Assembly (NCBI GenBank): GCA_965225855.1
Contig: CBDDCK010000005.1
Coordinates: 416,001 to 480,000, forward strand
From: Spirochaetia bacterium
GTDB taxonomy: Bacteria > Spirochaetota > Spirochaetia > SP-2023
Length of the DNA: 64,000 bases
Reading direction: 5' to 3'
The position numbers and the translations under genes were made by a program. The number at the start of each line of letters is the position of its first letter. Position 1 is the first letter of the stretch. Shown piece after piece: positions 12,131-51,271 of this stretch. The notes beneath the pieces were generated by a model. That model had not been told where the DNA came from and ran no database searches. It saw only the letters and a list, made by a program, of their open reading frames with translations.

Positions 12131-12268
12131 GTATCTCAAGCAATCTCAAGGTATCTCAAATAATCTCAAGCCTTTTGATTGGCATGGATTTTGAACCACC
12201 TTACAACACTAAACAACACTAAACAACACTAAACATAAAAAAACTTACAAAAAGCTTACAAAAAGCTT
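12131..12268 (+). repeat. Phased 10-11-bp microsatellites upstream of lipoprotein copy 1
   Basis: (NNATCTCAAR)4 at 12131-12170; (ACACTAAACA)3 near 12206-12235; repeated CTTACAAAAAG. Confidence 0.8.
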
Positions 12269-12277
12269 GTATGGGCC

Positions 12278-12304
12278 TTGACGCAACACCCCCCCTAGCA
12301 AAAT
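12278..12304 (+). promoter_or_regulatory. Candidate promoter with C7 tract in the spacer (copy 1)
   Basis: TTGACG-caaca-CCCCCCC-tag-CAAAAT; conserved upstream of all three paralogues. Confidence 0.55.
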
Positions 12305-12367
12305 GGGGATTTACAGACTAGCCCGTATGGGTTGGCCAATCTTTATCCATTGTTGGAGGTATTGCTT

Positions 12368-14401
12368 ATGTATAAGCTCAAACTACTTTTATTGCCATTA
12401 GCCTGGCTACTGGCCTTTATGGCCTTTGCCTGCGCCCCACCCGATGACGATGATCGATCTTCTGGGCCGTCTGGGCCTGCAATCACCAGTGCAAGCTACG
12501 ATGTTGGCACGGCTCTGTTAACCGTACAAGGTACTGACTTAAGTCCTACAGAAGCGCAAATCCAAACCATCGTAGTAGATGGCGTAGCTTTAGATTCCTA
12601 TACTGCAGATGACCCAGCCACTGGGCCAGATAGTAGCGATCTTGCAAAAGGTAAGTACCGTATTAAAAGCGATGGCACAGCGATTTGGCTGAAACTTAAA
12701 GATCAACATAAAGCTACTCTGAATGGCAAGGTGGGTAGCAATGGTCTAAAAAAAGGCTTGCTTAGCGTTGGCACTGGTGCTTGGGCGGGTTTAAATACAG
12801 CCAAAGACTTGGAAGTTAGTAATGTACCCGAAAATAAGCAGTCTAAAGTATCCGATGACAATCAGCCATCTAAGCAAACTGAAGAAGCTGAACAAGACGA
12901 ACAAGCTGAAGAAGTCGAACAAGCTGAAGATAAGCAGTCTAAGACCGAAACTGAAGAAGAGTCGCCTAAGCAACCTAAAGCCGAAGATCAGTCGCCTGAA
13001 GCCGCAATTACCGGTGCAAGCTACCATGTTGGCACGGCGCTGTTAACCTTGCAAGGTAATGACTTAGGTAGTGCAACCCAAGCCCAAATCCAAACTATCA
13101 CGGTAGATGGCTTAGCCTTCAGTTCCTATATTGCAGATGCCACAGCCACTGGGGCAGATAGTCGCAGTCTTGCAAAAGGTAAGTACCGCATTAAAAACGA
13201 TGGCACAGCGATTTGGCTGAAACTTACCGATACCGATAAAGCTGCTCTGAATGGCAAGACAGGTATGGATAGCAATGGTCTAAAAGATGGGTTGCTTACT
13301 AGCACTGGTGCTTGGGCGGGTTTAGATACAGCCAAAGGCTTGGCCGTTAGTGGACACCCACCCACAATTACCCGTGCAAGCTATGATGTTGGCACGGCGC
13401 TGTTAACTGTACAAGGCACGAACTTAAGTCCTACAGAAGCCCAAATCCAAACCATCGTGGTAGATGGCTTAGCCTTAATTTCCTATACTGCAGATACCAC
13501 AGCCACTGGGGTAAATAGTAACGGTCTTGAAAAAGGTAAGTACCGCATTAAAAACGATGGTACAGCGCTTTGGCTTTACCTTACCGATCGACATAAAGAT
13601 GCTCTGAATGGCAAGACAGGTATGGATAGCAATGGTCTAAAAGATGGGTTGCTTACTAGCACTGGTACTTGGGCGGGTTTAGATACAGCCAAAGGCTTGG
13701 CCGTTAGTGGAAACCCCGCACCCGCAATTACCCGTGCAACCTACAATGTAAATACAGGCTCATTAAAGATTACAGGTACTAATTTACCAAAAGCAGTTAC
13801 AGGCTGGGACTTTAGGGAATTGACGATTGTATCCGGTGATGGTAAGAAGAGATTGACATTATCCCGGTATACAATAGGTTCTGCAGCAAGTGCAACAAGC
13901 TTAAAGATTAGTTTAAATAGAGCCAAAGCCAATGCTATATTGGTTAAGGATGGTGATAGTGATGATGCTGGTGCATACAACCTGGAAGCAGCAGCAGGCT
14001 TTGTACCTGGTAGTAGCGCTGAAGACACAAGCAACCCTATTACCGTTAGTGGGAATACCATCGCCAGCGCAGAATACAATCCTAATACAGGCAAGTTAAC
14101 TATTGTCGGTAAAGGTTTACCGACAACAATTGCAGAGTGGGACTTTAGCAAATTGACGATTGTATCCCGTGATGGTACTAAGAGATTGACATTACCACGG
14201 CACTCAACTGTAGGTGAAAACAGAGCCACAGGTACTGTAGCAGTTACAAAAGGCGTAATTATTATTTTAAGCGGTAGTGTAAAAACCAATGCCGATGCTA
14301 TAATGCAGGATCGTTTTGGTCATTACAAACTTGAAGCAGCAGCAGGATTTGTACCTGGTGGTCCAGCAGACCCAACAGTTGTTCTTACTAGGAGTTCCTA
14401 A
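12368..14401 (+). CDS. Repeat-domain surface lipoprotein, copy 1 (A-linker-A-A-B-B), 677 aa
   Basis: GGAGGT RBS at 12355-12360 before ATG 12368; signal peptide ends FMAFA-C; three ~115-aa A repeats, an acidic linker and two B repeats (WDFxxL, YxLEAAAGF). Confidence 0.9.
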   Translation: MYKLKLLLLPLAWLLAFMAFACAPPDDDDRSSGPSGPAITSASYDVGTALLTVQGTDLSPTEAQIQTIVVDGVALDSYTADDPATGPDSSDLAKGKYRIKSDGTAIWLKLKDQHKATLNGKVGSNGLKKGLLSVGTGAWAGLNTAKDLEVSNVPENKQSKVSDDNQPSKQTEEAEQDEQAEEVEQAEDKQSKTETEEESPKQPKAEDQSPEAAITGASYHVGTALLTLQGNDLGSATQAQIQTITVDGLAFSSYIADATATGADSRSLAKGKYRIKNDGTAIWLKLTDTDKAALNGKTGMDSNGLKDGLLTSTGAWAGLDTAKGLAVSGHPPTITRASYDVGTALLTVQGTNLSPTEAQIQTIVVDGLALISYTADTTATGVNSNGLEKGKYRIKNDGTALWLYLTDRHKDALNGKTGMDSNGLKDGLLTSTGTWAGLDTAKGLAVSGNPAPAITRATYNVNTGSLKITGTNLPKAVTGWDFRELTIVSGDGKKRLTLSRYTIGSAASATSLKISLNRAKANAILVKDGDSDDAGAYNLEAAAGFVPGSSAEDTSNPITVSGNTIASAEYNPNTGKLTIVGKGLPTTIAEWDFSKLTIVSRDGTKRLTLPRHSTVGENRATGTVAVTKGVIIILSGSVKTNADAIMQDRFGHYKLEAAAGFVPGGPADPTVVLTRSS

Positions 14402-14444
14402 GTAAGTAAGGGTTTGGTTTAACTGCGCTTGCATTTGAAAATTG

Positions 14445-14640
14445 CAACCTTGGTAAGTTTTCTTATCAAGGCTGCTTTTATCAATTACAGCCTTGGTATG
14501 GATAAAATAGCAAGGCTGGAAAAAAATTTATTAAGGCTACAAATTTTTTTGTCAAGGCTGGAAATTTTTTTATTAAGGCTGCTTTTGCCAATTATAGCCT
14601 TGGTAAATACGGGAAGCCAATATAGCCAAAGGCTGGTACA
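14445..14640. repeat. Downstream palindrome cluster and 21-bp-period repeat (copy 1)
   Basis: Alternating CCTTGG and CAAGGCT elements; AAGGCT recurs at 14512, 14533, 14554 and 14575. Confidence 0.75.
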
Positions 14641-14869
14641 ACCAAGCTAAAAAGAACAAAAAAACTTGGAAGCCCAATTTACAGGCTTTAGACGGCTAAG
14701 TGTTTATGAGCGCAGTACAGCCTAAAAAGTAAGTAAATTTGCACGCAAGTCGTTTCATTTTGTGTGCGCCGTTACAAAAATCCAATTTTAGTTTCTAATG
14801 AGTTGACCTAAGTCTATACTGTCCATACTATAAAGCATATCAAAAATATGCGGGTTGACCGCAATATAA

Positions 14870-16186
<1,317 letters not shown>

Positions 16187-16190
16187 AAAC

Positions 16191-16230
16191 TTAAAAAGCC
16201 GACTTGTGCCCTCCCAAGTCGGCTTTTTAA
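16191..16230. terminator. Bidirectional intrinsic terminator between convergent eno and glnA
   Basis: Perfect 16-bp inverted repeat TTAAAAAGCCGACTTG / CAAGTCGGCTTTTTAA. Confidence 0.9.
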
Positions 16231-16231
16231 A

Positions 16232-18352
16232 TTACAAGGTAAACAACAATTCTTCGTAAGAAGGATATGGCCAAGCTTTCCGATCACATAAATGTTCTAA
16301 TCGGTCAATCTTTTCACGTAAATTATTCATCAACGGAATCATTTTACTGTAAACAAAGTCGGCTTGTTGTTGATCCGCACTGATTATTTCCGACTCTTGA
16401 CGAACAATACGTAAATTTTCAACCGATTCAACAATAGCTTCTAATAATTCATTAATTTCTGTAATCCGAGTTAATTGTCGCTCTACCTTCAGACTCAATT
16501 TCTGCTGCTTACGAACAACATTAATACTGTTTTCCAACTGTTTTTCTCCAGCAGGAATAACGCCAGTATTAGCCATTTCTTCCAATACTAAAGCCTCTAT
16601 GTTCAACAATTTATTGTAAACTTCTAAACGAATTTCATAACGAGAATGCAATTCTTCTTTATTTAGAATACCGTGTTTTTCAAACAGAGCTATAGTTTCA
16701 TCACTAATCAATGTCGGAAGAACATCAGGACTACTCTTCAAATTGGGCAATCCCCGTTTACGAGCTTCTTCTTGCCATTCTTCTGCATAACCATTGCCAT
16801 TAAAAATAATCCGCTTATGTTGCTCATAAGTTTGAGAAACCAATTCTTGGATCGTCTTGTTAACATCAGAACTGCTTTCCAACACATCAGCAAAATCAGA
16901 GAGAACATCGGCAACCGCTGTATTTAGGACAATATTGGAATCCGCAATGGACATAGCCGATCCAACCATACGAAATTCAAACTTATTCCCAGTGAAGGCA
17001 AAAGGAGAAGTTCTATTGCGATCACTATTATCTTTAGGTAACTCTGGCACAAGTGCAGAGCCAATGCCAATCATATCTTTATTTTTTGCTTTTTGAAATG
17101 TACCATTAGCAAATCCAGCCAAACTATTTTCCATTTCCTTTCCCAGAAATATAGAAATAATTGCCGGTGGGGCTTCATTTGCACCCAAGCGATGATCATT
17201 GCCTGCAGAACTCGCTGTCAAACGCAGCAATGCTGCATTTTGATCGACAGCTTTTAGTACCGCCGCGACAAACAACAAAAAGCGACAATTATCTTCTTCG
17301 GTTTTTCCCGGGTCAAATAAATTGAGACCGGTATCAGTACTTAAAGCCCAATTGTTGTGTTTCCCCGAGCCATTGACTCCAGCATAAGGTCTTTCATGCA
17401 ACAAACAAACTAAACCATTGCGCTGAGCGATTCGTTTCAAAGTTTCCATTATAATTTGGTTTTGGTCGGTTGCCAAATTAGTCGTGCTAAAAATAGGAGC
17501 TAATTCAAATTGATTGGGAGCAACTTCATTATGCTGAGTGCGAACAGTAACACCTAAATCCCATAGTTCTTCATTCAATTCAGCCATAAATTTAGAAACT
17601 TTTTCTGGAACACTGCCAAAATAATGATCTTCCATTTCTTGGCCTTTTGCTGGCATTGAGCCCATCATAGTTCGACCTGTCAAGCGCAAATCAGGACGTT
17701 TGTCAAATAATTCTTGATTTACCAAGAAATATTCTTGTTCAGCACCAACAGTACTGTCTACATAGGAAATATTTTTCATACCAATAGAGTATAAAACACG
17801 CACAGCTTGCTGGGATACAGCTGCCATGGAACGCAGCAATGGAGCTTTTTTATCCAGAGCTTCACCTGTATAGGAAACAAATACAGTTGGAATACATAGA
17901 ACCAAAGAATTTTCAGCATTTTTCTTTAAAAAAGCGGGAGAGGAGGTATCCCAAGCTGTATAACCACGTGCTTCAAATGTGGCACGCAAGCCACCATTAG
18001 GAAAAGATGAAGCATCAGGTTCACCCATAATCAGTTCTTTACCGGAAAACTCTGAAATTACTAAACCGTCTTCTTTTAACACAATGAAAGCTTCATGTTT
18101 TTCTGCTGTTAAACCAGTCAATGGATGAAACCAATGGCTAAAATGTGTTGCACCATTTTCCAATGCCCAATCTTTCATTGCGGTCGCAATAATATCAGCT
18201 GTATGCAAATCTAAGACATTTTTACCGTTCCGAACAGCCTGAAGAAATTTGTAGCATGATTTAGGCAAACGATTTTGTAATTGCCTTTCCGTAAAACAAT
18301 GTCTACCAAATGATTTTTCAAAATCATAGTTTTTTGTCACTTTCTCGGACAC
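16232..18352 (-). CDS. glnA: Glutamine synthetase type III
   Basis: 706 aa; HWFHPLTGLTAEKH, EPDASSFPNGG, HNEVAP, GSGKHNNW, RLGANEAPP and DRNRTSPFAFTGNKFEFR motifs. Confidence 0.95.
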   Translation of the reverse strand: MSEKVTKNYDFEKSFGRHCFTERQLQNRLPKSCYKFLQAVRNGKNVLDLHTADIIATAMKDWALENGATHFSHWFHPLTGLTAEKHEAFIVLKEDGLVISEFSGKELIMGEPDASSFPNGGLRATFEARGYTAWDTSSPAFLKKNAENSLVLCIPTVFVSYTGEALDKKAPLLRSMAAVSQQAVRVLYSIGMKNISYVDSTVGAEQEYFLVNQELFDKRPDLRLTGRTMMGSMPAKGQEMEDHYFGSVPEKVSKFMAELNEELWDLGVTVRTQHNEVAPNQFELAPIFSTTNLATDQNQIIMETLKRIAQRNGLVCLLHERPYAGVNGSGKHNNWALSTDTGLNLFDPGKTEEDNCRFLLFVAAVLKAVDQNAALLRLTASSAGNDHRLGANEAPPAIISIFLGKEMENSLAGFANGTFQKAKNKDMIGIGSALVPELPKDNSDRNRTSPFAFTGNKFEFRMVGSAMSIADSNIVLNTAVADVLSDFADVLESSSDVNKTIQELVSQTYEQHKRIIFNGNGYAEEWQEEARKRGLPNLKSSPDVLPTLISDETIALFEKHGILNKEELHSRYEIRLEVYNKLLNIEALVLEEMANTGVIPAGEKQLENSINVVRKQQKLSLKVERQLTRITEINELLEAIVESVENLRIVRQESEIISADQQQADFVYSKMIPLMNNLREKIDRLEHLCDRKAWPYPSYEELLFTL

Positions 18353-18490
18353 AATGATTCTCCTTTATGAGTTTATTTGCATAAACTATATTCTACAAAG
18401 CAAATATTATGTCAACCTAAATATATATAAAATAACTTTTAATAATGATATATAAATAAACAAATAGAAGTGAGTTTCATGACTATATAC

Positions 18491-18532
18491 AAACAAAGAC
18501 GCTCTGAACAAATCAAATGCTCAGAGCGTCTT
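18491..18532 (-). terminator. Intrinsic terminator after the flaA-like pair
   Basis: AAGACGCTCTGA / TCAGAGCGTCTT stem followed by a T-rich tract on the minus strand. Confidence 0.75.
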
Positions 18533-18577
18533 AAAGAATAGATTATCCTATACTAGCAGACATAATTTCTAAATCTC

Positions 18578-19345: not shown

Positions 19346-19372
19346 CTCTTTTCAATTCTCCTTTTCCTAAGT

Positions 19373-20305: not shown

Positions 20306-20361
20306 ATAAACTCCTTTTCAGCTTTGTCTAACTATTTTGACAAAAAATGCCATTAGCTAAG

Positions 20362-20389
20362 GTATCGTATCGAACGATAAAAAACTTTA
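20362..20389 (-). promoter_or_regulatory. Candidate sigma28 promoter of the flaA pair
   Basis: Minus strand reads TAAA-N16-TACGATAC, about 60 bp upstream of the ATG. Confidence 0.45.
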
Positions 20390-20440
20390 CAAAGTATTTT
20401 CACGAAAGCAAAATATTTTTCATATTTTGCTTTTACTATA

Positions 20441-28372: not shown

Positions 28373-29017
28373 TTAAGATAAGGTAATAATACGAATTTTG
28401 CGTAGAGTATCACCATCTTCAAGCATGGGCTCACCCAGCTCACCCATAGCCATAGATAGGATAACTTGGAAACACGGTAATGGCAGCCTTTCAGCTCCTT
28501 GAGTTTCTTGGGCTGCTTTAGTAGAAAACTTGGCAGCCCACTCTAAACGTTCTGGCCACTCTAACAGTGATACCCCCGGGCCATAAGTTCCTCCATTAAA
28601 CAAAATATCTTCACCACCGATTAAGTTAAACTCTTCACTATCGGCTAAACGATATAAATCAAAATGATAGAGCGGCACTGACTTTATTGGAGTGCTAGGG
28701 CTACTCTGACTATTTGGCACTTTTTGGGCTTGGTCTTGATATTCGAGCAATATAGGGAACGTTGGGCTTGGCAATGGCTCTGCGATACCCAGCCCCTGTG
28801 CAAAACCTTGGGCAAACACCGTTTTGCCCAATCCCACCTCTCCTTTGAGGAAAACAAGAACAGGAAAACAAGCTATGCTAAGCAATTTACTTGCCAAGCG
28901 GTAGCCTAGTGCTTTAGTAGCTTCTGGGCTATTACAAGCATGTAAAGCACTAAACAAATCATCGGTACTTGAACCTTCACAAAAGCCTTGCTCAATAGAA
29001 TTTTGCCTATAATCCAT
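28373..29017 (-). CDS. tsaE: tRNA t6A ATPase TsaE
   Basis: GEVGLGKT, SPTF, HFDLYRL and EWPE motifs; start uncertain (ATG 29017 used). Confidence 0.9.
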   Translation of the reverse strand: MDYRQNSIEQGFCEGSSTDDLFSALHACNSPEATKALGYRLASKLLSIACFPVLVFLKGEVGLGKTVFAQGFAQGLGIAEPLPSPTFPILLEYQDQAQKVPNSQSSPSTPIKSVPLYHFDLYRLADSEEFNLIGGEDILFNGGTYGPGVSLLEWPERLEWAAKFSTKAAQETQGAERLPLPCFQVILSMAMGELGEPMLEDGDTLRKIRIITLS

Positions 29018-29446
29018 ATTCCACACCCATTTCCAAGAAAAGTTAATGAAAAACTGACTAAACCACAATAGGAATTGATAAACTCTTTTGTGCAAAAAAT
29101 CGCTTTGCTTTATTTAAGTCATTACTTGAGTTTTCTACAATAAATGGCGCTTAAATTGTTTGCTTCTCTGCGTCAATCCTCTAATCTTGCTCAAACTCAT
29201 AATCCAAACTATACCTAATCAAGGTAATACCATAAACTTAGGTAGAGTAAATATAGCAGACTTTTAGGTGAGATATTTTAGCCCTACTGAATTGGTTCTT
29301 ACAATACAAGGCGCAAACTACATAATAGCCGATTGAAGGAGAATAATTGTAACGGCGCACGCAAAATGAAACGACTATTGCTAGCCATAGTACCCACCCA
29401 AAAGGCCAGCAAGGCTTGGCCAAAGTTTATCTTGTTACAAAAAATT

Positions 29447-29538
29447 CTTGTTAGTTATTAAGAGACTCTCTTGTTGGGCATTAAGAAATTCTGTTGTTGG
29501 GTATTAAGAGACTCTCTTATTGGGCATTAAGAAACTCT
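29447..29538 (-). repeat. 23-bp tandem array x4 downstream of lipoprotein copy 2
   Basis: Minus-strand units AGAGTTTCTTAATGCCCAATAAG, AGAGTCTCTTAATACCCAACAAC, AGAATTTCTTAATGCCCAACAAG and AGAGTCTCTTAATAACTAACAAG. Confidence 0.9.
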
Positions 29539-29689
29539 CTTAATTTTTATGCCAACGTTTTAGCTTGGTTGTTTTGGCCTTGGTATTTTCTCCATACCAA
29601 GGCTATAATTGGCAAAAGCAGCCTTGATAAAAAACTTACCAAGGCTGCAATTGGCCAATGCAAGCGTTGCAACAACCAAACCCTACTTA

Positions 29690-31867
29690 CTAAGAATTAC
29701 TAAGAATATTTTTTAGGTCTGCTGTACTACCAGGTACAAATCCTGCTGCTGCTTCAAGGTTGTATAGACTAAAACGATCCTGCATTATAGCTTCGGCTTT
29801 CTGTTTTACACTACCGCTTAAAATAATCTTTAAGCCTTTTATAGCTGCTACAGTACCTGTGGCTCTGTTTTCACCTAAAGTTGAGTGCCGTGGTAATGTG
29901 TATCTCTTCTTACCATCACTGGATACAATCGTCAATTTGCTAAAGTCCCACTCTGCAATTGTTGTCGGTAAACCGCCACCATAAATAGTTAACTCGCCTG
30001 TATTAGCATTGTATGATGCGTTATTGATAAAACCTGCATAACCTCTAACGGTAATCGGGTTATTGCTTGTGTCTGCTATGTTACCACCTGCAAATCCTGC
30101 TGCTGCTTCCAGGTTGTATGCACCATTATTATCACGAACACCATCGTTAACCAGTATCTTCTCGGCTTCCGCTTTTACACTACCCGTTAAAAAAATCGCT
30201 AAGCCTCTTGCATTTGCTCCAGAACCTGTGGCTGTGTTTTCACCTGCAGTTGAGGAGCGCCGGGGTAATGTGAATCTCTTATTACCATCACCGGATACAA
30301 TCGTCAATTTGCTAAAGTCCCAGCCTGTAACTGCTGCTGGTAACCTGCTACCAAAAATAGATAACTCGCCTGTACTTACATTATAGGTTGCACTGGTAAT
30401 TGTGGGTTCAGGATTACCACTAACGGTAATAGGGTTGCTTGTGTCTGCTGCGCTACCACCTGCAAATCCTGCTGCTGCTTCCAGGTTGTATGCACCATTA
30501 TCATCACTATCACCATTCTTAACCAGTATCTTATTGGCTTCCGCTTTTACACTACCGCTTAAAATAATATTTAAGCCTGTTGCACTTGCTTTAAAACCTG
30601 AGGCTAGGTTTATACCTGCAGTTGAGTGCCGTGGTAATGTGTAGCTCTTACTACCATCACCGGATACAAGCGTCAATTTGCTAAAGTCCCAGCCTGTAAC
30701 TGCTGCTGGTAAATTAGTACCTGTAATCACTAACACGCCTGTATTAACATGGTAGGTTGCACGGGTAATTGTGGGTGGGTTTCCACTAACGGCTAAGGCT
30801 TTGGCTGTATCTAAACCCGCCCAAGTACCAGTGCTAGTAAGCAACCCATCTTTTAGACCATTGGTATTCATACCTGTCTTGCCATTCAGAGCATCTTTAT
30901 CGTCATCGGTAAGGTAAAGCCAAAGCGCTGTGCCATCGCCTTTAATACGGTACTTACCTTTTGCAAGACTGCGACTATCTGGCCCAGTGGCTGGATCATC
31001 TGCAATATAGGAACTTAAGGCTAGGCCATATACCGTGATGGTTTGGATTTGCGCTTGGGTCGCACTACCTAAGTGAGTACCTTGTACGGTTAACAGCGCC
31101 GTGCCAACATTGTAGCTTGCACCGGTAATTGCGGCTTTAGGCGACTCCTCTTCGACTTGTTCGTCTTTAGGTTGCTTAGGCGACTGCTCTTCGGTTTCAG
31201 TCTTAGACTGCTTATCTTCGACTTCTTCAGCTTGTTCGACTTGTTTGTCTTTAGGTTGCTTAGGCGATTGATCATCGACTTCTTCGGTTTGTTCGGCTTC
31301 GGGTAACTTAGGCGACTCTTGTTCAGCTTGTTCGACTTGTTCAGCTTGTTCAGTTTGCTTAGATGGCTGATTGTCATCGGATACTTTAGACTGCTTATTT
31401 TCGGGTACATTACTAACGTCCAAGTCTTTAGGTGTATTTAAACCTGCCCAAGCACCAGAGCTAGTAAGCAAGCCTTTTTTTAGACCATCGCTATCCATAC
31501 CGGGCTTGGCCTCAAGAACAGCTTTATCGTCATCGGTAAGTCTAAGCCAAAGCTCTGTGCCATCGCTTTTAATACGGTACTTACCTTGTTCAAGACCGTT
31601 ACTATTTACCCCAGTGGCTGGGTCATCTGCAGTATAGGAACTTAAGGCTACGCCATCTACTACGATGGTTTGGATTTGCGCTTCTGTAGGACTTAAGTCA
31701 GTACCTTGTACGGTTAACAGAGCCTTGCCAACATCGTAGATGGCGTTATTGATAGTCGGCTTAGACGGCCCAGAAGACGGCGCATCGTCATCGGGTGGTG
31801 CACAGGCCAAGGCCATAAAGGCCAGTAGCAGTGCTACAGGCCATAAAAATAGTTTGAGCTTATACAT
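29690..31867 (-). CDS. Repeat-domain surface lipoprotein, copy 2 (A-long linker-A-B-B-B), 725 aa
   Basis: Same RBS and signal peptide (FMALA-C) as copy 1; two A and three B repeats. Confidence 0.9.
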   Translation of the reverse strand: MYKLKLFLWPVALLLAFMALACAPPDDDAPSSGPSKPTINNAIYDVGKALLTVQGTDLSPTEAQIQTIVVDGVALSSYTADDPATGVNSNGLEQGKYRIKSDGTELWLRLTDDDKAVLEAKPGMDSDGLKKGLLTSSGAWAGLNTPKDLDVSNVPENKQSKVSDDNQPSKQTEQAEQVEQAEQESPKLPEAEQTEEVDDQSPKQPKDKQVEQAEEVEDKQSKTETEEQSPKQPKDEQVEEESPKAAITGASYNVGTALLTVQGTHLGSATQAQIQTITVYGLALSSYIADDPATGPDSRSLAKGKYRIKGDGTALWLYLTDDDKDALNGKTGMNTNGLKDGLLTSTGTWAGLDTAKALAVSGNPPTITRATYHVNTGVLVITGTNLPAAVTGWDFSKLTLVSGDGSKSYTLPRHSTAGINLASGFKASATGLNIILSGSVKAEANKILVKNGDSDDNGAYNLEAAAGFAGGSAADTSNPITVSGNPEPTITSATYNVSTGELSIFGSRLPAAVTGWDFSKLTIVSGDGNKRFTLPRRSSTAGENTATGSGANARGLAIFLTGSVKAEAEKILVNDGVRDNNGAYNLEAAAGFAGGNIADTSNNPITVRGYAGFINNASYNANTGELTIYGGGLPTTIAEWDFSKLTIVSSDGKKRYTLPRHSTLGENRATGTVAAIKGLKIILSGSVKQKAEAIMQDRFSLYNLEAAAGFVPGSTADLKNILSNS

Positions 31868-32268
31868 AAGCAATACCTCCAACAAGGGATAAAGATTGGC
31901 CAACCCATACGGGCTAGTCTGTAAATCCCTATTTTGCTAGGGGGGGTGTTGCGTCAAGGTCTATATAAGCTTTTTGTAAGTTTTTTTGTGTTTTTTGTGT
32001 GTTGTAAGGTGGTTAAAAATCCATGCCAATCCATTTGCATTCCATATTATTGTAATCTATAAACCATCAAAGCAACCAATCCATAGTTATAGACGCAACA
32101 AGTCGATAACTATGGACCGACCTAGTCCATAATTGTTACTTTTCAAAAGTACATAATTAGGGCATGGTTTGGTTTTTGTTGTGAAGGCTTGGGGGGTGGG
32201 GCAGTTATTGGTTTGGGGGCGGCAGAGGGATTCATACCAAACCAAAGAGAAAAACAAAAATGAACAAC
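31868..32268 (-). repeat. Conserved ~400-bp upstream non-coding module shared with copy 3 (proximal part also with copy 1)
   Basis: Highly similar to 48107-48518 in reverse complement. Confidence 0.9.
31931..31957 (-). promoter_or_regulatory. Candidate promoter with C7 tract (copy 2)
   Basis: Minus strand TTGACG-caaca-C7-tag-CAAAAT. Confidence 0.55.
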
Positions 32269-32386: not shown

Positions 32387-33181
32387 CTATCTTGTAATAC
32401 CTTTACGGTTGTTGGAGAGAATGCTGCGCAAACGCGTTACAGCCCGAGTATGTAGTTGCGATACCCGTGATTCTGTAACATCCAGCAAGGCACCAATTTC
32501 TTTGAGTGTCAAATCTTCATAGTAATATAATACTAATATCATTTTCTCTTTTTCCGGTAACTCATTAATCGCTTTGACAATAACTTGGCGAATCTCTTGC
32601 CTCTCTGCTACTTCTTCAGGCTGGTAGCGGTTTGGGGAGCGAACAGTTTCGATACGCGGAAGGCTCTCATCATCTGCCACGCTGAGCATATCACTCAATG
32701 AGAGTAATGATGTATTACTAAGCTTTAACTGGGTTTGATTAAATTCTTCTTGCGACATATTTAAAGATTTCGCTATTTCGTCATCTGTCGGAGGGCGGCC
32801 ATAACGGACTTTCAAGTATTGAATTTGTTCGTCAATTTCACGCGATTTTTGGCGTATAGAACGAGGAATCCAATCAATTGCACGCAGCTCGTCAAAAATG
32901 GCCCCTCTTATGCGGGTTACTGCATACGTTTTAAATTTTACATGTTTATCTGGATCAAATTTTTCAATAGCATCTAGTAGACCAAACGTACCAAAACTAA
33001 CCAAGTCGCTAAAACTAACTGAAGGCGGAAGACCTACAGAAACTTTTCCGGCAACGTATTTTACTAAAGGAGCATACTGGTTGATAATCTTATCTCGTGT
33101 TTGTATATCATGGTTTTTACAGTATTGCTGCCAGAGTATATCTTCTGGAATACCATCTATAATATTTTCTTCCACTATCAA
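32387..33181 (-). CDS. fliA: RNA polymerase sigma28 factor FliA/WhiG
   Basis: YAPLVKYVA, GLLDAIEKFD, RIRGAIFDELR, DWIPRS and LTLKEIG...ESRVSQLH motifs. Confidence 0.95.
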   Translation of the reverse strand: MIVEENIIDGIPEDILWQQYCKNHDIQTRDKIINQYAPLVKYVAGKVSVGLPPSVSFSDLVSFGTFGLLDAIEKFDPDKHVKFKTYAVTRIRGAIFDELRAIDWIPRSIRQKSREIDEQIQYLKVRYGRPPTDDEIAKSLNMSQEEFNQTQLKLSNTSLLSLSDMLSVADDESLPRIETVRSPNRYQPEEVAERQEIRQVIVKAINELPEKEKMILVLYYYEDLTLKEIGALLDVTESRVSQLHTRAVTRLRSILSNNRKGITR

Positions 33182-40215: not shown

Positions 40216-40218
40216 AAA

Positions 40219-40905: not shown

Positions 40906-40993
40906 AGTTTGCTTGAATTTCCTAACAAAATTGAATTACAAAAACACTAAGGAAATTTTAGGTATTATGGAGCATAACATCGAATAAAAGATT

Positions 40994-43708: not shown

Positions 43709-43769
43709 GATAAAACAGAACCTCCATAACTATATTCTTTCTATATTGATTTTCATAGGACCAGCCTAT

Positions 43770-45044: not shown

Positions 45045-45087
45045 AAGAAGCAGATTATGTTGCTTAGTTGGCCTTCATGAAAAAATT

Positions 45088-46212
45088 TTACTTTATAATA
45101 ACAGTTTGATTTCTTCCATTTTGTTTTGCACGATATAAAGCTTGATCGGCTCTTTCGATTAAATCTTTTGACTGCTCACTTTGGCGGAAACTGGTTATCC
45201 CTATTGAGACGGTTGGACTTGGAATGATTTGCTCTTTTGCATCATACAATTCTATTTTTTTAATGGCTTGGTGGATACGTTCTGCTATGACTTTTGCTTG
45301 CTGTAAATCACTTTGGGCAAAACAGACGAATTCTTCCCCACCAAAACGGCCCGTAAAATCCCGAGTCCGTACAGAAGCTTTAATTATTTTGGCAATAGCA
45401 TAAAGACATTGATCTCCTGCTAAGTGTCCATAGGTATCGTTAAATTTTTTAAAGAAATCCACATCAATAATTAGCAGTTGGTATTGCTTTATTGCCGATT
45501 GATTATCTAATTGTTTTTTTATAAGTTTGAGAAAATAATATTTATGGTGTAATTGGGTCAATTGATCAAAAGTAGCATAATTTCTTTCTTTTTGATAATC
45601 CAAAGCTAACGATAAAAGAGTTTGGAATTGTTGTAAGTACACAGGGGCATTAAATACAGGATGGCATAATGGGCGTTCGTAGATTAAAATACCATAAACT
45701 TCTTGCGAATTAGACGTTAAAAGCATACCACAGCGAATATACTCTTGAAATTTTTGAAACTGGTATATGAAAAAATTGTTAGTTGATTGAGCAACGACAG
45801 AAAAAAATCTTGTAGAAAGAATGTCTTTTATTTGCGGTTCATACCAGTATTTTGTTGAGTTGGGATTGGTGCTTTTAGAAACATCAATAGAAATGGAAGT
45901 GGGAAATTTGTCATACAGTGTTTTTGGATATGGAAATTGTTCTGAATAACTACCACGTTGCAAAGTGTAATTTGTTTGATTTTCTTTTTGATCAATATTG
46001 AGGTAGAGCAAACATGTGCGCTGTTGTAGAACTTGATACATGAAAGAAAACAAATTGATTTCAAAATCTTCCAGATTATCGGCAGTTAAAATGCTTTGGT
46101 AGAAAAAGATAAAAGTCTCATAATCGTTGTGAATATTATTATAATGGGCACCGTTATTGGCCAATGCTAAGTTGGGATACTCTAGTGCTGAAGTTTGGCA
46201 TGTTAGATTCAT
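45088..46212 (-). CDS. GGDEF-domain diguanylate cyclase
   Basis: DVDFFKKFNDTYGHLAGD, RTRD I-site, RFGGEEF and ADQALYRAKQNGRN motifs. Confidence 0.92.
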   Translation of the reverse strand: MNLTCQTSALEYPNLALANNGAHYNNIHNDYETFIFFYQSILTADNLEDFEINLFSFMYQVLQQRTCLLYLNIDQKENQTNYTLQRGSYSEQFPYPKTLYDKFPTSISIDVSKSTNPNSTKYWYEPQIKDILSTRFFSVVAQSTNNFFIYQFQKFQEYIRCGMLLTSNSQEVYGILIYERPLCHPVFNAPVYLQQFQTLLSLALDYQKERNYATFDQLTQLHHKYYFLKLIKKQLDNQSAIKQYQLLIIDVDFFKKFNDTYGHLAGDQCLYAIAKIIKASVRTRDFTGRFGGEEFVCFAQSDLQQAKVIAERIHQAIKKIELYDAKEQIIPSPTVSIGITSFRQSEQSKDLIERADQALYRAKQNGRNQTVIIK

Positions 46213-46242
46213 AATTAAACTCTAATTCGATATCAAAATAGT

Positions 46243-46316
46243 TGGGCCCACCAGGACTTGAACCTGGGACCCTCTGATTATGAGTCAGATGCTCTAACCG
46301 ACTGAGCTATAGGCCC
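46243..46316 (-). tRNA. tRNA with CAT anticodon, probably tRNA-Ile2
   Basis: Minus strand GGGCCTATAGCTCAGTCGGTTAGAGCATCTGACTCATAATCAGAGGGTCCCAGGTTCAAGTCCTGGTGGGCCCA; Ile-like acceptor stem. Confidence 0.9.
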
Positions 46317-46338
46317 TACTTGATAATATAATTCAAAA

Positions 46339-46411
46339 TAGTGGCGGAGGGACTTGAACCCCCGACCTAACGGATATGAGCCGTGCGCTCTACCGACTGA
46401 GCTACGCCACC
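46339..46411 (-). tRNA. tRNA-Met(CAT), probably elongator
   Basis: Minus strand GGTGGCGTAGCTCAGTCGGTAGAGCGCACGGCTCATATCCGTTAGGTCGGGGGTTCAAGTCCCTCCGCCACTA. Confidence 0.9.
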
Positions 46412-46424
46412 ATTCTGGCCATAT

Positions 46425-46452
46425 ATTCTACAAAAAACGGTAAGCTTGTCAA
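46425..46452 (-). promoter_or_regulatory. Sigma70 promoter of the tRNA pair
   Basis: Minus strand TTGACA-N16-TAGAAT, just upstream of tRNA-Met. Confidence 0.75.
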
Positions 46453-46467
46453 TAACTTTGTTGTTAT

Positions 46468-46559
46468 TGTAAGGGGGCATGAAGAATGAAATGTGGGGTA
46501 TTTGGGCAAATTGTTGCGTGATGCCCTGCTTATTGGGCTTTCAGAGGGTTCTTGACGGG
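46468..46559 (+). repeat. 92-bp direct repeat, left copy
   Basis: TGTAAGGGGGC...CTTGACGGG; matches 47886-47977 with 3 substitutions. Confidence 0.95.
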
Positions 46560-46680
46560 GTTTTGAATTTGAAATTAATTGCAACTTTTTGCTGTTTTTT
46601 GGGATAATTTGCAAAAAAGTTGCAGGTTTTCAGAGTGTTTTTTGGCTGTAAGTGCTTTGGAAACATGATATTTTTGCTCT

Positions 46681-46956
46681 ATTGCCACTAAAAATTACGA
46701 CCTTAATCAAAAGAAAAATAATCTTACTGGAACTGTTGAAGTAGACGAAACCTACATAGGTGGAGAAGAGAACAATAAACATTGGGATAAGAAAGCAAGT
46801 AATAACAATGAAACTTGGGCAGACAAAAAGACAACTGTAATAGGTGCTGTTTCAAGAGAACAGAAGATTGTTACAGCTAAGGTAATTTCTAAAACAGATT
46901 CTTCTAATGTTCAACCGTTTATAAGAAAAAATATTGATATTGAGGCTTACATAATC
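46681..46956 (+). mobile_element. IS1595-family (ISXO2-like) transposase internal fragment
   Basis: Uncalled frame reads LTGTVEVDETYIGGEENNKHWDKK...KTTVIGAVSR...VQPFIRKNI; no start codon (TGA at 46666) and similarity ends before the expected second catalytic Asp. Confidence 0.85.
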
Positions 46957-47039
46957 GGAAGGCAGCCCTTAAACTTATTGCTAGGCATTAAGTTTAAGTT
47001 GTTAGAAATTTAACTTGAATCTTTTATTAGAGAAATTAT

Positions 47040-47873
47040 ATGAAATATAGAGATAGTCTTTATTCTGAATATTTATTTGGAAATCGCTTTACTAGTAAAC
47101 AAGAGATTATTAAAAATATAGCTAGATTTTTATTCTGTGATTTAGCAACTATATCAAAATTAAATATTAAAGATTTAATGGCAGCACAATATATTATTGA
47201 ACAGATAGGGGCTATAAATCGTGATGGCGTTCATTTAATTTCAGGAATAAAACATATAATCGTTAATTCAATTATTGAAGGCTCAAGCAAGCGTAAAACG
47301 GCTGAAGCTTTGCGTATACGTTTAGGAGGATATAATCACGACTGGCTAAAAATTGCGAATACAAAGCTACAGGTTGCTAATGATGCAGGCAAAGTGGCAG
47401 AAATAGCAACTAACACACCCGAAGGCGAGCCAGTTTTGCTCAAGCGCTGGGAGATGTACGACCCCGCAGTATGCAACATTTGTAAGAGGTTTAATAAAAA
47501 AATAGCTATGCTTGTGGAAGGTGAACGGGAGAGCGATATAGCACCCAAAGACAGCCCAGCCGATTATCTAATTTGGCCAAGCAAGAATAACTGTAACCGT
47601 AAACGCTCCGAATGGCAATTATCTTTTGGGCCTATCCACCCCAATTGCCGGGGCAGCTGGGACCTCTACACCAAAATAGAACAAGAAAACAAAGACTTAT
47701 TTGCTAGCTGGGAAAAAACTAAAAAGTTAAAGACTAAATTATGGCAACAAGCCGAAAAGCAAGCCAACGCCCCTGTTACCATGCCAGACGGCACAACCAG
47801 AAGAGGCAAAGGCAATGTCGGTACAGTTTATAGCCAATTATTACAGCAGGCAAAAAAAGAAGGGAAATTATAG
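47040..47873 (+). CDS. Phage head-morphogenesis (MuF / SPP1 gp7-like) protein, orphan
   Basis: DWLKIANT, VCNIC and GPIHPNCRGSW (CxxC...HPxCR signature). Confidence 0.7.
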   Translation: MKYRDSLYSEYLFGNRFTSKQEIIKNIARFLFCDLATISKLNIKDLMAAQYIIEQIGAINRDGVHLISGIKHIIVNSIIEGSSKRKTAEALRIRLGGYNHDWLKIANTKLQVANDAGKVAEIATNTPEGEPVLLKRWEMYDPAVCNICKRFNKKIAMLVEGERESDIAPKDSPADYLIWPSKNNCNRKRSEWQLSFGPIHPNCRGSWDLYTKIEQENKDLFASWEKTKKLKTKLWQQAEKQANAPVTMPDGTTRRGKGNVGTVYSQLLQQAKKEGKL

Positions 47874-47885
47874 CTTGTTGGGAGA

Positions 47886-47977
47886 TGTAAGGGGGCGTGA
47901 AGAATGAAATGTGGGGTATTTGGGCAAATTGTTGCGTGATGCCCTGCTTATGGGGCTTTCAGAGGGTGCTTGACGGG
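47886..47977 (+). repeat. 92-bp direct repeat, right copy
   Basis: Matches 46468-46559; offset 1418 bp. Confidence 0.95.
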
Positions 47978-48106
47978 ATTTGAAGTGGTTTATAGTTGGC
48001 CTTCCGCCTTTAACTTCGCCTGTTTTCGCCTTGGTTCTTCTATAGATTAAAAATCTCTATCCCAACCTTTTTATAAAGTCCAGGGCAAGGAAAAATCAAA
48101 TATGGG

Positions 48107-48518
48107 TTGTTGTTCATTTTTGTTTTTCTCTTTGGTTTGGTATGAATCCCTCTGCCACCCCCAACCAAAACCCCACCCCCAAACCTTCACAGCAAAAACC
48201 AAACCATGCCCTAATTATGTACTTTTGAAAAGGAACAATTATGGACTAGGTCGGTCCATAGTTATCGACTTGTTGCGTCTATAACTATGGATTGGTTGCT
48301 TTGATGGTTTATGGATTACGATAATATGGAATGCAAATGGATTGGCATGGATTTTGAACCACCTTACAACACTAAACAACACTAAACATAAAAAAACACA
48401 AAAAAACTTACAAAAAGCTTATAAAGGCCTTGACGCAACACCCCCCTAGCAAAATGGGGCACTGTACACTAGCCCGTATGGGTTGGTTAATCTTTATCCC
48501 TTGTTGGAGGTATTGCTT
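48107..48518 (+). repeat. Conserved upstream non-coding module of lipoprotein copy 3
   Basis: Highly similar to the reverse complement of 31868-32268; proximal ~180 bp also matches 12177-12367. Confidence 0.9.
48430..48455 (+). promoter_or_regulatory. Candidate promoter with C6 tract (copy 3)
   Basis: TTGACG-caaca-CCCCCC-tag-CAAAAT; one C shorter than copies 1 and 2. Confidence 0.55.
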
Positions 48519-50555
48519 ATGTATAAGCTCAAACTATTTTTATTGCCTGTAGCATTGCTACTGGCCTTTATGGCCTTTGCCTGCGCCCCACCCGATGACA
48601 ACGATGACAATGGTGCGCCATCTTCTGGGCCGACTATCAATAACGCCATCTACGACTTTGCTACGGCTATCTTAACCGTACAAGGTACTGACTTAAGTCC
48701 TACAGAAGCCCAAATCCAAACCATCGTAGTAGATGGCCTAGCCTTAAGTTCCTATACTGCAGATGACGATGCCACTGGGGTAAATAGTAACGGTCTTGCA
48801 AAAGGTAAGTACCGTATTAAAAGCGATGGCACAGCGCTTTGGCTGAAACTTACCGATCCACATAAAGCTGTTCTTGAGGCCAAGGTGGGTAGCAATGGTC
48901 TAAAAAAAGGCTTGCTTAGCGTTGGCTCTGGTGCTTGGGCGGGTTTAAATACACCTAAAGACTTGGACGTTAGTAATGTACCCGAAAATAAGCAGTCTAA
49001 AGTATCCGATGACAATCAGCCATCTAAGCAAACTGAAGAAGCTGAACAAGTCGAACAAGCTGAAGAAGAGTCGCCTAAAGCCGCAATTACCGGTGCAACC
49101 TACCATGTTGGCACGGCTCTGCTAACTGTACAAGGTACTCACTTAGGTAGTGCGACCCAAGCACAAATCCAAACCATCAAAGTATATGACCTAGTCTTAA
49201 ATCCCTATATTGCAGATGCTAAACCCACTGGGCCAGATAGTCGCGGTCTTGCAAAAGGTAAGTACCGCATTAAAAACGATGGCACAGCGCTTTGGCTGAA
49301 ACTTACCGATCCACATAAAGCTACTCTGAATGGCAAGACAGGTATGGATAGCAATGGTCTAAAAGATGGGTTGCTTACTAGCACTGGTACTTGGGCGGGT
49401 TTAAATACAGCCAAAGCCTTGGCCGTTAGTGGTAACCCCGCAATTACCCGTGCAAGCTACAATGTTGGCACGGCGCTGCTAACTGTACAAGGTACTCACT
49501 TAGGTAGTGCGACCCAAGCCCAAATCCAAACCATCGTGGTAGGAAGCCAAACAAATGGTGTAGCCTTAAGTTCCTATACTGCAGATGACGATGCCACTGG
49601 GCCAGATAGTCGCGGTCTTGCAAAAGGTAAGTACCGCCTGCATAGCGCTGGCACAGCGCTTTGGCTGAAACTTACCGATCAACATAAAGCTGCTCTGAAT
49701 GGCAAGACAGGTATGGATAGCAATGGTCTAAAAGATGGGTTACTTAGCGTTGGCACTGGTACTTGGGCAGGTTTAGATACAGCCAAAGCCTTGGCCGTTA
49801 GTGGAAACCCACCCGCAATTACCCGTGCAACCTACAATGCTGCTACAAGTGTGTTAGTGATTACAGGTGTCAATTTACCGTCATCAGTGCGGGGCTGGGA
49901 CTTTAGCAAATTGAGGCTTGTCGCAGGTAATGGTCGTACTAAGAGTGCCCCATTATTACGGCACAACCCAACCGGTATTAATAGAGCTACAGGTTCTGCA
50001 GCAAGTGCAACAAGCTTAACGATTACTTTAAAGGGTAGTGAACACACAAAAGCCAGCAATATACTGGTTAAGAATGGTGATAGTGATGATAATGGTGCAT
50101 ACAACCTTAAAGCAGCAGCAGGATTTGTAATTGGTAGCGCTGAAGACACAAGCAATAACCCGATTACTGTCAGTGGCTACAAAAGCTATCTCCACAGCTT
50201 AACCTACTTTGCTAATAATGGCAAGTTATTGATTCAGGGTAAAAATTTACCGACAACAATTGCAGACTGGGACTTTAGCAAATTGACGCTTGTATCCGGT
50301 GATGGTAGTAAGGAATACACATTACCCCAGCACGCAACCGCAGATGCAAATACAGCCACAGGTTCTGATGCAAATATAGGCGGCGTAGTAATTACTTTAA
50401 GCGGTACTGTAAAAGCCAAAGCCGAGAAGATACTGGTTAAGAATGGTGTTCGTGATAATAATGGTGCATACAACCTTAAAGCAGCAGCAGGATTTGTAAT
50501 TGGTAGTCCAGAAGACCCAACCACTTCAATTAGAGTTTTTGGTGTTGGTAAATAA
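48519..50555 (+). CDS. Repeat-domain surface lipoprotein, copy 3 (A-short linker-A-A-B-B), 678 aa
   Basis: Same RBS, FMAFA-C lipobox and A/B repeats as copies 1 and 2. Confidence 0.9.
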   Translation: MYKLKLFLLPVALLLAFMAFACAPPDDNDDNGAPSSGPTINNAIYDFATAILTVQGTDLSPTEAQIQTIVVDGLALSSYTADDDATGVNSNGLAKGKYRIKSDGTALWLKLTDPHKAVLEAKVGSNGLKKGLLSVGSGAWAGLNTPKDLDVSNVPENKQSKVSDDNQPSKQTEEAEQVEQAEEESPKAAITGATYHVGTALLTVQGTHLGSATQAQIQTIKVYDLVLNPYIADAKPTGPDSRGLAKGKYRIKNDGTALWLKLTDPHKATLNGKTGMDSNGLKDGLLTSTGTWAGLNTAKALAVSGNPAITRASYNVGTALLTVQGTHLGSATQAQIQTIVVGSQTNGVALSSYTADDDATGPDSRGLAKGKYRLHSAGTALWLKLTDQHKAALNGKTGMDSNGLKDGLLSVGTGTWAGLDTAKALAVSGNPPAITRATYNAATSVLVITGVNLPSSVRGWDFSKLRLVAGNGRTKSAPLLRHNPTGINRATGSAASATSLTITLKGSEHTKASNILVKNGDSDDNGAYNLKAAAGFVIGSAEDTSNNPITVSGYKSYLHSLTYFANNGKLLIQGKNLPTTIADWDFSKLTLVSGDGSKEYTLPQHATADANTATGSDANIGGVVITLSGTVKAKAEKILVKNGVRDNNGAYNLKAAAGFVIGSPEDPTTSIRVFGVGK

Positions 50556-50668
50556 GTAGGGTTTTGTTGTTGCGGTAAGCAATGCTTGCACTGGCCTATT
50601 GCAGCCTTGGTATGGAGAACATACCAAGGCCAAAAACACCAAGCTAAAACGTTGCCATAAAAATTAAG

Positions 50669-51105
50669 AGATTCTCTTAATGCCCAATAATAGAGTTTCT
50701 TAATGTATAACAAGAGAGTTTCTTAATACCTAACAACAGAGTTTCTTAATGCCCAACAACAGAATTTCTTAATACCCAACAACAGAGTTTCTTAATGCCC
50801 AATAATAGAGTTTCTTAATGCATAACAAGAGAGTTTCTTAATACCTAACAACAGAGTTTCTTAATGCCCAACAAGAGAATTTCTTAATACCCAACAACAG
50901 AGTTTCTTAATGCCCAATAATAGAGTTTCTTAATGCATAACAAGAGAGTTTCTTAATACCTAACAACAGAGTTTCTTAATGCCCAACAACAGAATTTCTT
51001 AATACCCAACAACAGAGTTTCTTAATGCCCAATAATAGAGTTTCTTAATGCCCAATAATAGAGTTTCTTAATGCCCAACAACAGAGTCTCTTAATAACTA
51101 ACAAG
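50669..51105 (+). repeat. 23-bp tandem array x19 with 115-bp higher-order period
   Basis: Consensus AGAGTTTCTTAATRCCCAAYAAN; five variant units recur in the same order three times. Confidence 0.97.
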
Positions 51106-51271
51106 AGATTTTTGTAACAAGATAAACTTTGGCCAAGCCTTGGTAAGTTTTTATCAAGGCTGCTTTTATCAATTACAGCCTCGGTAATATAGACGATGGG
51201 TTGGGCTTTTTTTGTTTTGTTGCTAAAAATACTGTTGACCCTTCTATATGGTTAATCTATCATGGCCCCCA

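Follow-up and report, generated by a model that had tools for sequence, protein, structure and literature searches.

The best-known multigene families for variable surface lipoproteins are those of the mycoplasmas and of pathogenic spirochaetes of vertebrates. In the vlp/vsp and vlsE systems of Borrelia, as in the pilE/pilS system of Neisseria, a single expression site is supplied from silent cassettes by gene conversion that is guided by conserved flanks. The vlhA family of Mycoplasma gallisepticum is described as dozens of full-length lipoprotein genes with their own promoters, conserved flanks and an upstream (GAA)n switch (PMC6258824). For the tpr family of Treponema pallidum one account gives a promoter poly-G tract of 7-11 G, the length of which sets transcription and varies within a population (PMC7864442), and vlhA of Mycoplasma synoviae is reported to undergo gene conversion, with one expression site fed by silent cassettes (PMC2825196). 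Here we consider three paralogous lipoprotein genes from a window of 64,000 nucleotides (nt) – the whole stretch analysed, positions 416,001 to 480,000 of contig CBDDCK010000005.1 (assembly GCA_965225855.1) of a Spirochaetia bacterium – and the family of 112 open reading frames (ORFs) to which they belong. The paralogues are mosaics of each other in which the register of the domains is kept.

Our reading, which we hold to be probable though well short of certain, is that these genes form a 112-copy family of modular lipoproteins, likely exposed at the cell surface, that exchange domains, are under diversifying selection in one domain type (B), and would have the expression of each gene set by a C-tract in the spacer of its predicted promoter.

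A dispersed family of modular lipoprotein genes

The initial annotation proposed three paralogous lipoprotein genes, and all three ORFs are present, at 12368-14401 (+), 29690-31867 (-) and 48519-50555 (+). The true starts are ATG codons at 12368, 31867 (minus strand) and 48519, each with GGAGG 8 nt before it. The N-termini, MYKLKL...FMA(F/L)AC-APPDDD, constitute a signal peptide with lipobox (MYKLKLLLLPLAWLLAFMAFAC) followed by an acidic tether. Each protein carries five units of ~115-125 amino acids (aa) of two kinds, A and B, with a low-complexity linker rich in E, Q and K directly after the first A; the layouts AAABB, AABBB and AAABB, already suggested for the three genes, are borne out by the positions of motifs and by an alignment of eight A and seven B units. 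No Pfam or NCBIfam family scored above its cut-off on the three proteins, and hmmscan found no RTX or DUF4214 part in them.

The genome searched was the window's own (2.71 Mb in 5 contigs, 94% complete). A protein search returned 326 matching pieces, and blastp combined with profile hidden Markov models of A and B assigned to the family 112 of the 2016 stop-to-stop segments of at least 150 aa: 233,529 nt, or 8.6% of the genome. The expectation that three copies in the window meant many more elsewhere thus proved right. Family architectures follow the pattern A(n)B(m):

AABB: 36 genes
AABBB: 20 genes
ABBB: 15 genes
AAABB: 13 genes
AAAABB: 9 genes
16 rarer architectures: 19 genes

The genes are dispersed, with a median gap of 14.8 kb to the next copy and only 3 of 107 gaps below 1.5 kb; the proposal that gene plus flanks is a repeated unit scattered around the chromosome fits these figures. 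The MYKLK-type signal peptide is kept in 106 of the 112 ORFs and the lipobox in 105, and the genome encodes both lgt (TIGR00544, 199 bits against a cut-off of 118.9) and the signal peptidase II gene lspA (TIGR00077, 110 bits against 73.95). Domain-bearing fragments outside the family ORFs number only three genome-wide, all promoterless. There is therefore no store of silent pseudogenes, and nearly every family copy is intact.

Independent contigs assembled from short reads of the same strain have a summed depth of 640-2436 on family bins against 9-15 on the intervening housekeeping bins, from which we conclude that the copy number is real and not an artefact of assembly. The same contigs match the housekeeping genes without a single difference and break at the cassette borders 14733 and 29386. 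All read evidence comes from Logan contigs, in which family segments occur as pieces of ~50 nt, so that tract lengths at individual loci are unreadable.

Several outlying members, all beyond the window, stand apart from this pattern. Two long, divergent genes (G000:C5:353640-357599 and C5:571721-574798), with the interleaved domain orders BABAABABB and AABBABA, begin with a variant signal peptide, MNKHRLFLWP..., and it is these that the most distant relatives in ENA resemble, at ~48-52%. At G000:C5:206269-209289 an ORF of ~1000 aa combines a related signal peptide with a single B domain; the rest of it consists of ~74 copies of a 33-nt tandem repeat, in frame.

Domain exchange, selection and relatives of the family

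Evidence that the copies diversify by recombination, as had been suggested from the three window genes, came from comparison of 251 A and 258 B domains. A domain's closest counterpart in another gene nearly always belongs to the same positional class (102 of 106 for the first A, 100 of 107 for the last B), at a median nearest-neighbour identity of 93%, and yet the domains of one gene rarely point to the same partner: best-partner genes differ for three quarters or more of the domains in 85 of 108 genes, and for every domain in 44. The domains of copy 1 have their nearest relatives in four partner genes, and the five of copy 3 in five different genes. Copy 2 matches one gene on contig C4 at 98.4, 93.8 and 99.7% nt identity across its B domains, against 85.2 and 92.8% across its A domains. 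Pairs of the same architecture in which one domain is at least 98% and another at most 88% identical in nt number 20 of 1004 and involve 29 genes; in one pair the domain identities are 100, 98.9, 93.1, 90.1, 79.9 and 69.9%. A PHI-like test on 35 AABB genes (290 informative sites) gave a neighbour incompatibility of 0.408 against 0.478 ± 0.005 under permutation, a significant departure that none of 500 permutations equalled, and 48% of informative site pairs in the AABB genes fail the four-gamete test.

The two domain types differ in their substitution patterns. The approximate NG86 ratio of nonsynonymous to synonymous change (dN/dS) has a median of 1.41 in B domains and exceeds 1 in 93% of 3950 random paralogue pairs; in A domains it is 0.81 over 3957 pairs. 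The linker after the first A ranges from 0 to 185 aa (median 68) and contains in-frame repeats, whereas the other domain junctions have a length of ~0.

Two tyrosine recombinases (PF00589) are encoded in the genome, neither in the window nor beside the three copies, and no serine recombinase (PF00239) was found in it. General homologous recombination is thus the likely engine of exchange. We found no arrangement of the kind expected of a site-specific inversion switch: the genes are dispersed and no recombinase lies beside the three copies.

A further issue is where the domains come from. A profile search of 1.84 billion representative proteins gave 464 matches at E<=1e-3. Matches outside the family are almost all confined to the B half and fall in giant proteins, the longest of 5,527 aa, with as many as 31 repeats; among 144 remote proteins listed, B matches occur in 141 and A matches in 6. 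One giant protein that was scanned also contains DUF4347, RTX repeats (HemolysinCabind) and DUF4214. The B domain is homologous to a ~120-aa tandem repeat of giant secreted proteins in other bacteria, a repeat for which we found no curated Pfam or NCBIfam model. SWM_repeat (PF13753) came up as a language-model look-alike with scores of 0.90-0.91, a lead only; hmmscan gave no PF13753 match in the window proteins (E<=1) or in seven remote B-repeat proteins (E<=0.001). Aligned against each other by hhalign, the A and B profiles match over their first 23 residues only (probability 87%), so that a common ancestry of A and B is not established.

A structural model of the B domain, built from a 62-sequence alignment, is confident (pLDDT 96.9) and shows a beta-sandwich with one helix. 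Along strands 14-20 and 67-72 hypervariable columns take turns with invariant ones, the pattern that exposure of one face would be expected to give. Foldseek returned weak Ig-like matches, none at E<=0.001, with top TM-scores of 0.35-0.46; in VIA-align the best match was a domain of the S-layer protein SbsC (Z 8.0, rmsd 2.8 over 94 residues), followed by EA1 (Z 6.0) and SGBP-B (Z 5.7), all at background level for such searches. A sequence-profile search of the PDB gave no match at E<=1, and an AlphaFold model of an A-B pair with 26 paralogues was too poor to use (pLDDT 52.1).

The family has a narrow known distribution. The nearest named relative of the source genome is Candidatus Haliotispira prima. 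A whole-protein search of 5.8 billion proteins returned 85 matches from the genome itself, six from ENA assemblies and one weak match from Nitrosomonas. Five of the ENA proteins are full family members, only 76-86% identical in aa to the closest copy here, which points to a different repertoire in at least one further assembly. Protein searches of 40 relatives and an A-B profile run against 200 other genomes of the class did not find the family, and none of 209 pattern matches in JGI metagenome contigs was a relative. The 241 nt of promoter plus signal-peptide DNA had no match in five genomes of the order, in a search run without a positive control. Searches of the literature on Haliotispira and on abalone spirochete genomes yielded, among the papers listed, no description of such a lipoprotein family.

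The repeated unit, its predicted promoter and its flanks

Each copy is an autonomous unit, running from its own near-identical promoter region to a conserved 3′ hairpin module. The order of parts is promoter region, 5′ untranslated region, signal peptide with lipobox, acidic tether, first A domain, E/Q/K linker, the remainder of A(n)B(m) and 3′ hairpin: conserved ends bracket a variable middle. From -90 to +160 around the ATG nearly all columns are at least 90% identical across 102 genes, and the family alignment shows a conserved stretch of ~110 nt past the stop codon that includes a terminator-like hairpin with a T-rich tail. As had been stated, no transposase, integrase or reverse transcriptase (RT) ORF lies within the units, the lipoprotein gene being the sole long ORF of each. 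The genes and their domains in the window are as follows.

12368-14401, + strand: copy 1 gene, 677 aa, AAABB; signal peptide and lipobox Cys in codons 1-22
12476-12826, then E/Q/K-rich linker, 13001-13360 and 13361-13720, + strand: copy 1 A domains
13721-14062 and 14063-14398, + strand: copy 1 B domains
29690-31867, - strand: copy 2 gene, 725 aa, AABBB
31400-31759, then long E/Q/K linker, and 30776-31135, - strand: copy 2 A domains
30407-30775, 30035-30406 and 29693-30034, - strand: copy 2 B domains
48519-50555, + strand: copy 3 gene, 678 aa, AAABB
48630-48977, then linker, 49080-49436 and 49437-49811, + strand: copy 3 A domains
49812-50183 and 50184-50552, + strand: copy 3 B domains

The 2-kb bins that contain these genes (12001-14000, 30001-32000 and 48001-50000) have a G+C content of 45%, against 33-42% in the other bins of the window.

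Upstream of the start codon all 106 genes with the signal peptide carry TTGAC(G/T) followed by a short spacer with a run of C, and in 104 CA(A/C)AAT comes next. The run is C7 in 84 genes, C6 in 20, and C8 and C9 in one each, the genes with C8 and C9 lying at G000:C5:1508576-1510498 and C5:800634-803198; the corresponding -35/-10 spacer is 15 nt in 84 genes, 14 in 17, 16 in one and 17 in two, both hexamers being predictions and the -10 assigned by eye. Between an upstream box, GATTGGCATGGATTTT..., and the -35 lie A-rich units of ~10 bp that differ in number and kind from copy to copy (83 promoters compared). Copy 1 illustrates the arrangement: its predicted core has a 15-nt spacer that holds C7 at 12289-12295.

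12131-12170, + strand: four units of 10 bp, GGTATCTCAA-like, in the upstream region of copy 1; comparable units recur at other loci
12177-12204 (+), 32004-32031 (-) and 48340-48367 (+): conserved upstream box, GATTGGCATGGATTTTGAACCACCTTAC
12205-12277, + strand: A-rich ~10-bp units of copy 1 between box and -35, AACACTAAAC three times and CTTACAAAAAG twice
12278-12304, + strand: predicted promoter core of copy 1, -35 TTGACG at 12278-12283 and -10-like CAAAAT at 12299-12304
12355-12359, + strand: Shine-Dalgarno sequence (SD) GGAGG of copy 1, 8 nt ahead of the start codon at 12368; identity of at least 90% across 102 genes
31931-31957, - strand: predicted promoter core of copy 2, with C7; SD at 31876-31880
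48430-48455, + strand: predicted promoter core of copy 3, with C6 and a putative 14-nt spacer; SD at 48506-48510; A-rich units upstream

Read in this way, the region would have the anatomy of a contingency switch located in a promoter. The upstream box is possibly the site of a regulator. A sigma-54 reading of the box (TGGCAT-N-TTGAA) did not stand up to inspection by eye, since the box lacks the -12 GC and differs from copy to copy. In contigs from the same strain (runs X1 and X2), where ~100 near-identical promoters are collapsed, C6 makes up ~6% of the summed depth alongside C7; neither C8 nor C9 appeared, nor any junction informative for switching, and contigs of a second strain (X4, X5) show no C6.

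That homology extends into non-coding DNA on both sides of the genes had been noted from the window, and this is correct; the extents given were too short, the repeated units as judged by BLASTN copy number reaching over 11551-14800, 29351-32250 and 48101-51200. The outer flanks are shuffled non-coding modules with nested endpoints. Counting the copies of the 48107-48620 module by BLASTN, a check the initial annotation had proposed, gave ~112-115 genomic copies for its promoter-proximal part, ~83-91 for the part with the box, ~25-28 for the next 170 nt and only three that reach 48107, with left ends at 48107, 48147-48167, 48327 and 48367-48387.

11551-12150, + strand: far-upstream repeated non-coding modules of copy 1, ~28 genomic copies, combinations shuffled elsewhere; no conserved ORF in any frame
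11879-11923, + strand: perfect 45-nt hairpin with A6/T6 flanks within that far-upstream module, likely a bidirectional terminator or insulator
14448-14479, + strand: terminator-like hairpin with T-rich tail in the conserved 3′ module of copy 1, CCTTGGTAAG...CTTATCAAGG CTGCTTTT
14480-14800, + strand: distal repeated 3′ flank of copy 1, 6-69 genomic copies by segment
29351-29689, - strand: 3′ flank of copy 2, the distal repeated segment reaching 29351
29614-29644, - strand: terminator-like hairpin of copy 2, with a second hairpin at 29578-29602
29435-29549, - strand: 23-bp tandem units of copy 2, 4 units
31868-32250, - strand: 5′ flank of copy 2, including the ~25-copy upstream module
48101-48518, + strand: 5′ flank of copy 3, with the ~25-copy upstream module, 95% identical to that of copy 2
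32081-32115 (-) and 48256-48290 (+): identical 35-nt element with 10-nt inverted ends, CCATAGTTAT...ATAACTATGG
50556-51200, + strand: 3′ flank of copy 3, with a hairpin at 50605-50629 and a terminator-like hairpin at 51138-51167
50597-51186, + strand: 23-bp tandem array of copy 3, ~18-25 units

The 35-nt element sits within the ~25-copy upstream module common to copies 2 and 3, and could be a protein-binding site or an RNA hairpin. The 23-bp array of copy 3 is placed between the stop codon and the terminator-like element. Tandem Repeats Finder (TRF) reports 31 arrays of the 23-bp TCTTAAT unit in the genome; 22 of them, of 2-33 units each, are located downstream of a family gene at a distance of at most 600 bp, and nine lie elsewhere. 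TRF also reports two other loci beyond the window, G000:C5:664690-670396 and C5:1074339-1089837, with periods of 66/132/198 and ~190 nt; both have constant 36-nt units (GTTGCAGTTGCATACC...TTTAAT and ATCTACAACAGTAGAAATTAAATAGTGTCCTTAGAC) and look like CRISPR arrays.

The genes named as neighbours of the three copies – plsY and eno, tsaE and fliA, tRNAs and a cyclase – are all where they had been placed.

10819-11460 and 14882-16186: plsY and eno, neighbours of copy 1
28373-29095 and 32387-33181: tsaE and fliA, neighbours of copy 2, with tsaB also beside tsaE
46243-46411 and 51248-52447: two tRNAs and a class III cyclase-domain gene, neighbours of copy 3

Comparison of the plsY-eno and tsaE-fliA junctions, with empty sites in view, met with same-genus genomes that are distant (TsaE and TsaB ~50% identical in aa) and in which synteny is already broken. 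In Candidatus Haliotispira prima a PilZ-domain gene, not plsY, lies upstream of eno; three genomes of the same genus keep tsaE, tsaB and two more neighbours in synteny, with fliA not adjacent. A strain diverged by ~1-2% (run X4) supplied a contig over 28843-29437, with 8 differences over these 595 nt, that links tsaE to the distal 3′ flank of copy 2; a cassette is probably present at the same tsaE locus in that strain. Beside the two tRNA genes a 96-nt direct repeat, 96% identical, stands at 46468-46563 and 47886-47981. The ORF that it brackets (47040-47873) has no Pfam or NCBIfam match; the whole may be a small inserted element.

Competing explanations and known systems

The data support the reading of a recombining cassette family. 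Its workings would be as follows. Gene conversion of the RecA type, acting between the conserved ends as well as between domains in like positions, would reshuffle the repertoire, and slipped-strand changes in the linker repeats, the upstream 10-bp units and the C6-C9 tract would vary size and expression. The length of the C-tract would set the predicted -35/-10 spacing to between 14 and 17 nt, 16-17 being reached in only 3 of 106 genes. The cell would thereby gain a lipoprotein coat or adhesin layer that is heterogeneous or can be switched. Both the surface location and the role as antigen are putative.

A number of points weigh against this account. The discordance of nearest neighbours can arise in part from paralogues that are nearly equidistant. 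The dN/dS values come from an approximate method applied, without a control gene set, to pairs of recombining paralogues that are not independent. Spirochaete lipoproteins can be periplasmic. As to the tract, C7 is short for a contingency locus of high rate, and the contigs give no sign of heterogeneity in the population, though rare variants are lost from contigs. Some C6 tracts of the assembly may reflect homopolymer errors, C6 being found in 19% of genes against ~6% of depth. Finally, a consensus promoter scan did not call the promoter, because a 15-nt spacer falls outside the 16-18 window of the scan.

The strongest rival is that all copies are expressed constitutively and together, or are under ordinary regulation, as a diversified array of adhesins, ligand binders or an S-layer-like coat, with recombination and selection widening the range of binding and no switching involved; the C-tract and the 10-bp units would then belong to an unchanging promoter design, such as curved DNA or an UP element. 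With 106 of 112 copies intact, complete in their promoter regions and almost unaccompanied by pseudogenes, the family looks as it should if selection acted on every copy, and the tracts are near-uniform (C7 in 84 of 106), with no heterogeneity in the contigs. The nearest folds to the B model belong to S-layer and surface glycan-binding domains (SbsC, EA1, SGBP-B), but these matches are at background level. It would also be very costly to make at least 100 lipoproteins of 70 kDa from near-identical, strong-looking promoters. Moreover, promoters of the sigma-70 type have a spacer optimum of 16-17 nt, and the 14-15 nt proposed here would be poor. We regard co-expression as possible, and as the less probable account.

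A bolder version of the switching idea takes the spacer lengths at face value. Given that the 16-17 nt preferred by sigma-70 is found in only 3 of 106 promoters, slippage in the spacer C-tract might turn on single genes, so that few of the 112 are expressed at any time while gene conversion renews the repertoire – a coat in the manner of the variant surface glycoproteins (VSG). Such a coat would be built from a domain borrowed from giant adhesins. The host of Candidatus Haliotispira prima is, as we take it from the name, a marine invertebrate, and the selecting agent might be phages or diversified innate receptors rather than antibodies. We think this lottery unlikely, if worth stating.

It is more doubtful still that the cassette is a non-autonomous mobile element, gene and flanks being mobilised in trans, so that the size of the family would reflect transposition and not selection on the protein. 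Single-gene units with repeated flanks do stand between unrelated housekeeping genes at more than 100 loci, and the flank modules are themselves repeated 25-115 times. However, the endpoints of homology are nested and modular and do not form fixed termini (no search was aimed at terminal inverted repeats or target-site duplications). The units contain no transposase or RT, and the recombinases of the genome are two tyrosine and no serine enzymes (other transposase families were not searched). The ORFs stay intact, with dN/dS above 1 in B. We consider mobilisation in trans improbable. That an assembly or binning artefact inflated a smaller family is scarcely credible: highly similar repeats of 2 kb do challenge an assembler, and the genome comes in 5 contigs, but the depth of same-strain contigs is ~50-200x the single-copy level, these contigs break exactly at the cassette borders, and the copies differ (93% median nearest-neighbour domain identity).

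Returning to the recombining, surface-exposed family that we favour, its interest lies in what is new: a very large family (8.6% of the genome), unrelated in sequence to those described, with nearly all copies intact, in a poorly known lineage of spirochaetes. It shows one adhesin repeat and a lineage-specific domain made into a recombining library with standardised control regions, and offers, beyond the classical models, a clean system in which to study diversifying selection, gene conversion and the possible switching of promoter tracts. If the host is without adaptive immunity, the question becomes what drives such diversification.

How, then, does the family compare with known systems? 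The initial annotation drew an analogy, in logic and not in sequence, to tpr and to Borrelia vlp/vsp. The lack of a Pfam or NCBIfam match agrees with its wording; the Borrelia half of the analogy fits poorly, because the family has neither a single expression site nor a silent archive: of its 112 copies, 106 are complete genes with a promoter region. What the present family has in common with single-expression-site systems is the exchange of variable regions between conserved flanks, here presumably by gene conversion. With tpr it shares the setting of a paralogous spirochaete family with a homopolymer in the promoter – a predicted promoter in our case. The tpr family has about 12 members, which are putative outer-membrane porins, unlike the 112 lipoproteins of putatively Ig-like repeats described here; and variation of the tpr tract and its effect on transcription have been demonstrated, whereas here both are predictions. 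The giant repeat proteins are single and secreted, while the family here joins 2-4 B repeats to a lipoprotein signal and A domains, amplified 112-fold.

In design the closest system is vlhA of M. gallisepticum, which likewise takes a large share of a small genome. Both comprise many complete lipoprotein genes, each with a conserved promoter and a variable repeat upstream. The differences are equally clear. There is no relation in sequence or domain, no Pfam or NCBIfam family scoring above cut-off; in place of (GAA)n we find a C-tract inside the predicted spacer together with 10-bp A-rich units. Expression one gene at a time, as in vlhA, is hypothetical for our family. And where vlhA genes are clustered, those described here are dispersed singly, in a diderm spirochaete: a family close to vlhA in design, and new in sequence.

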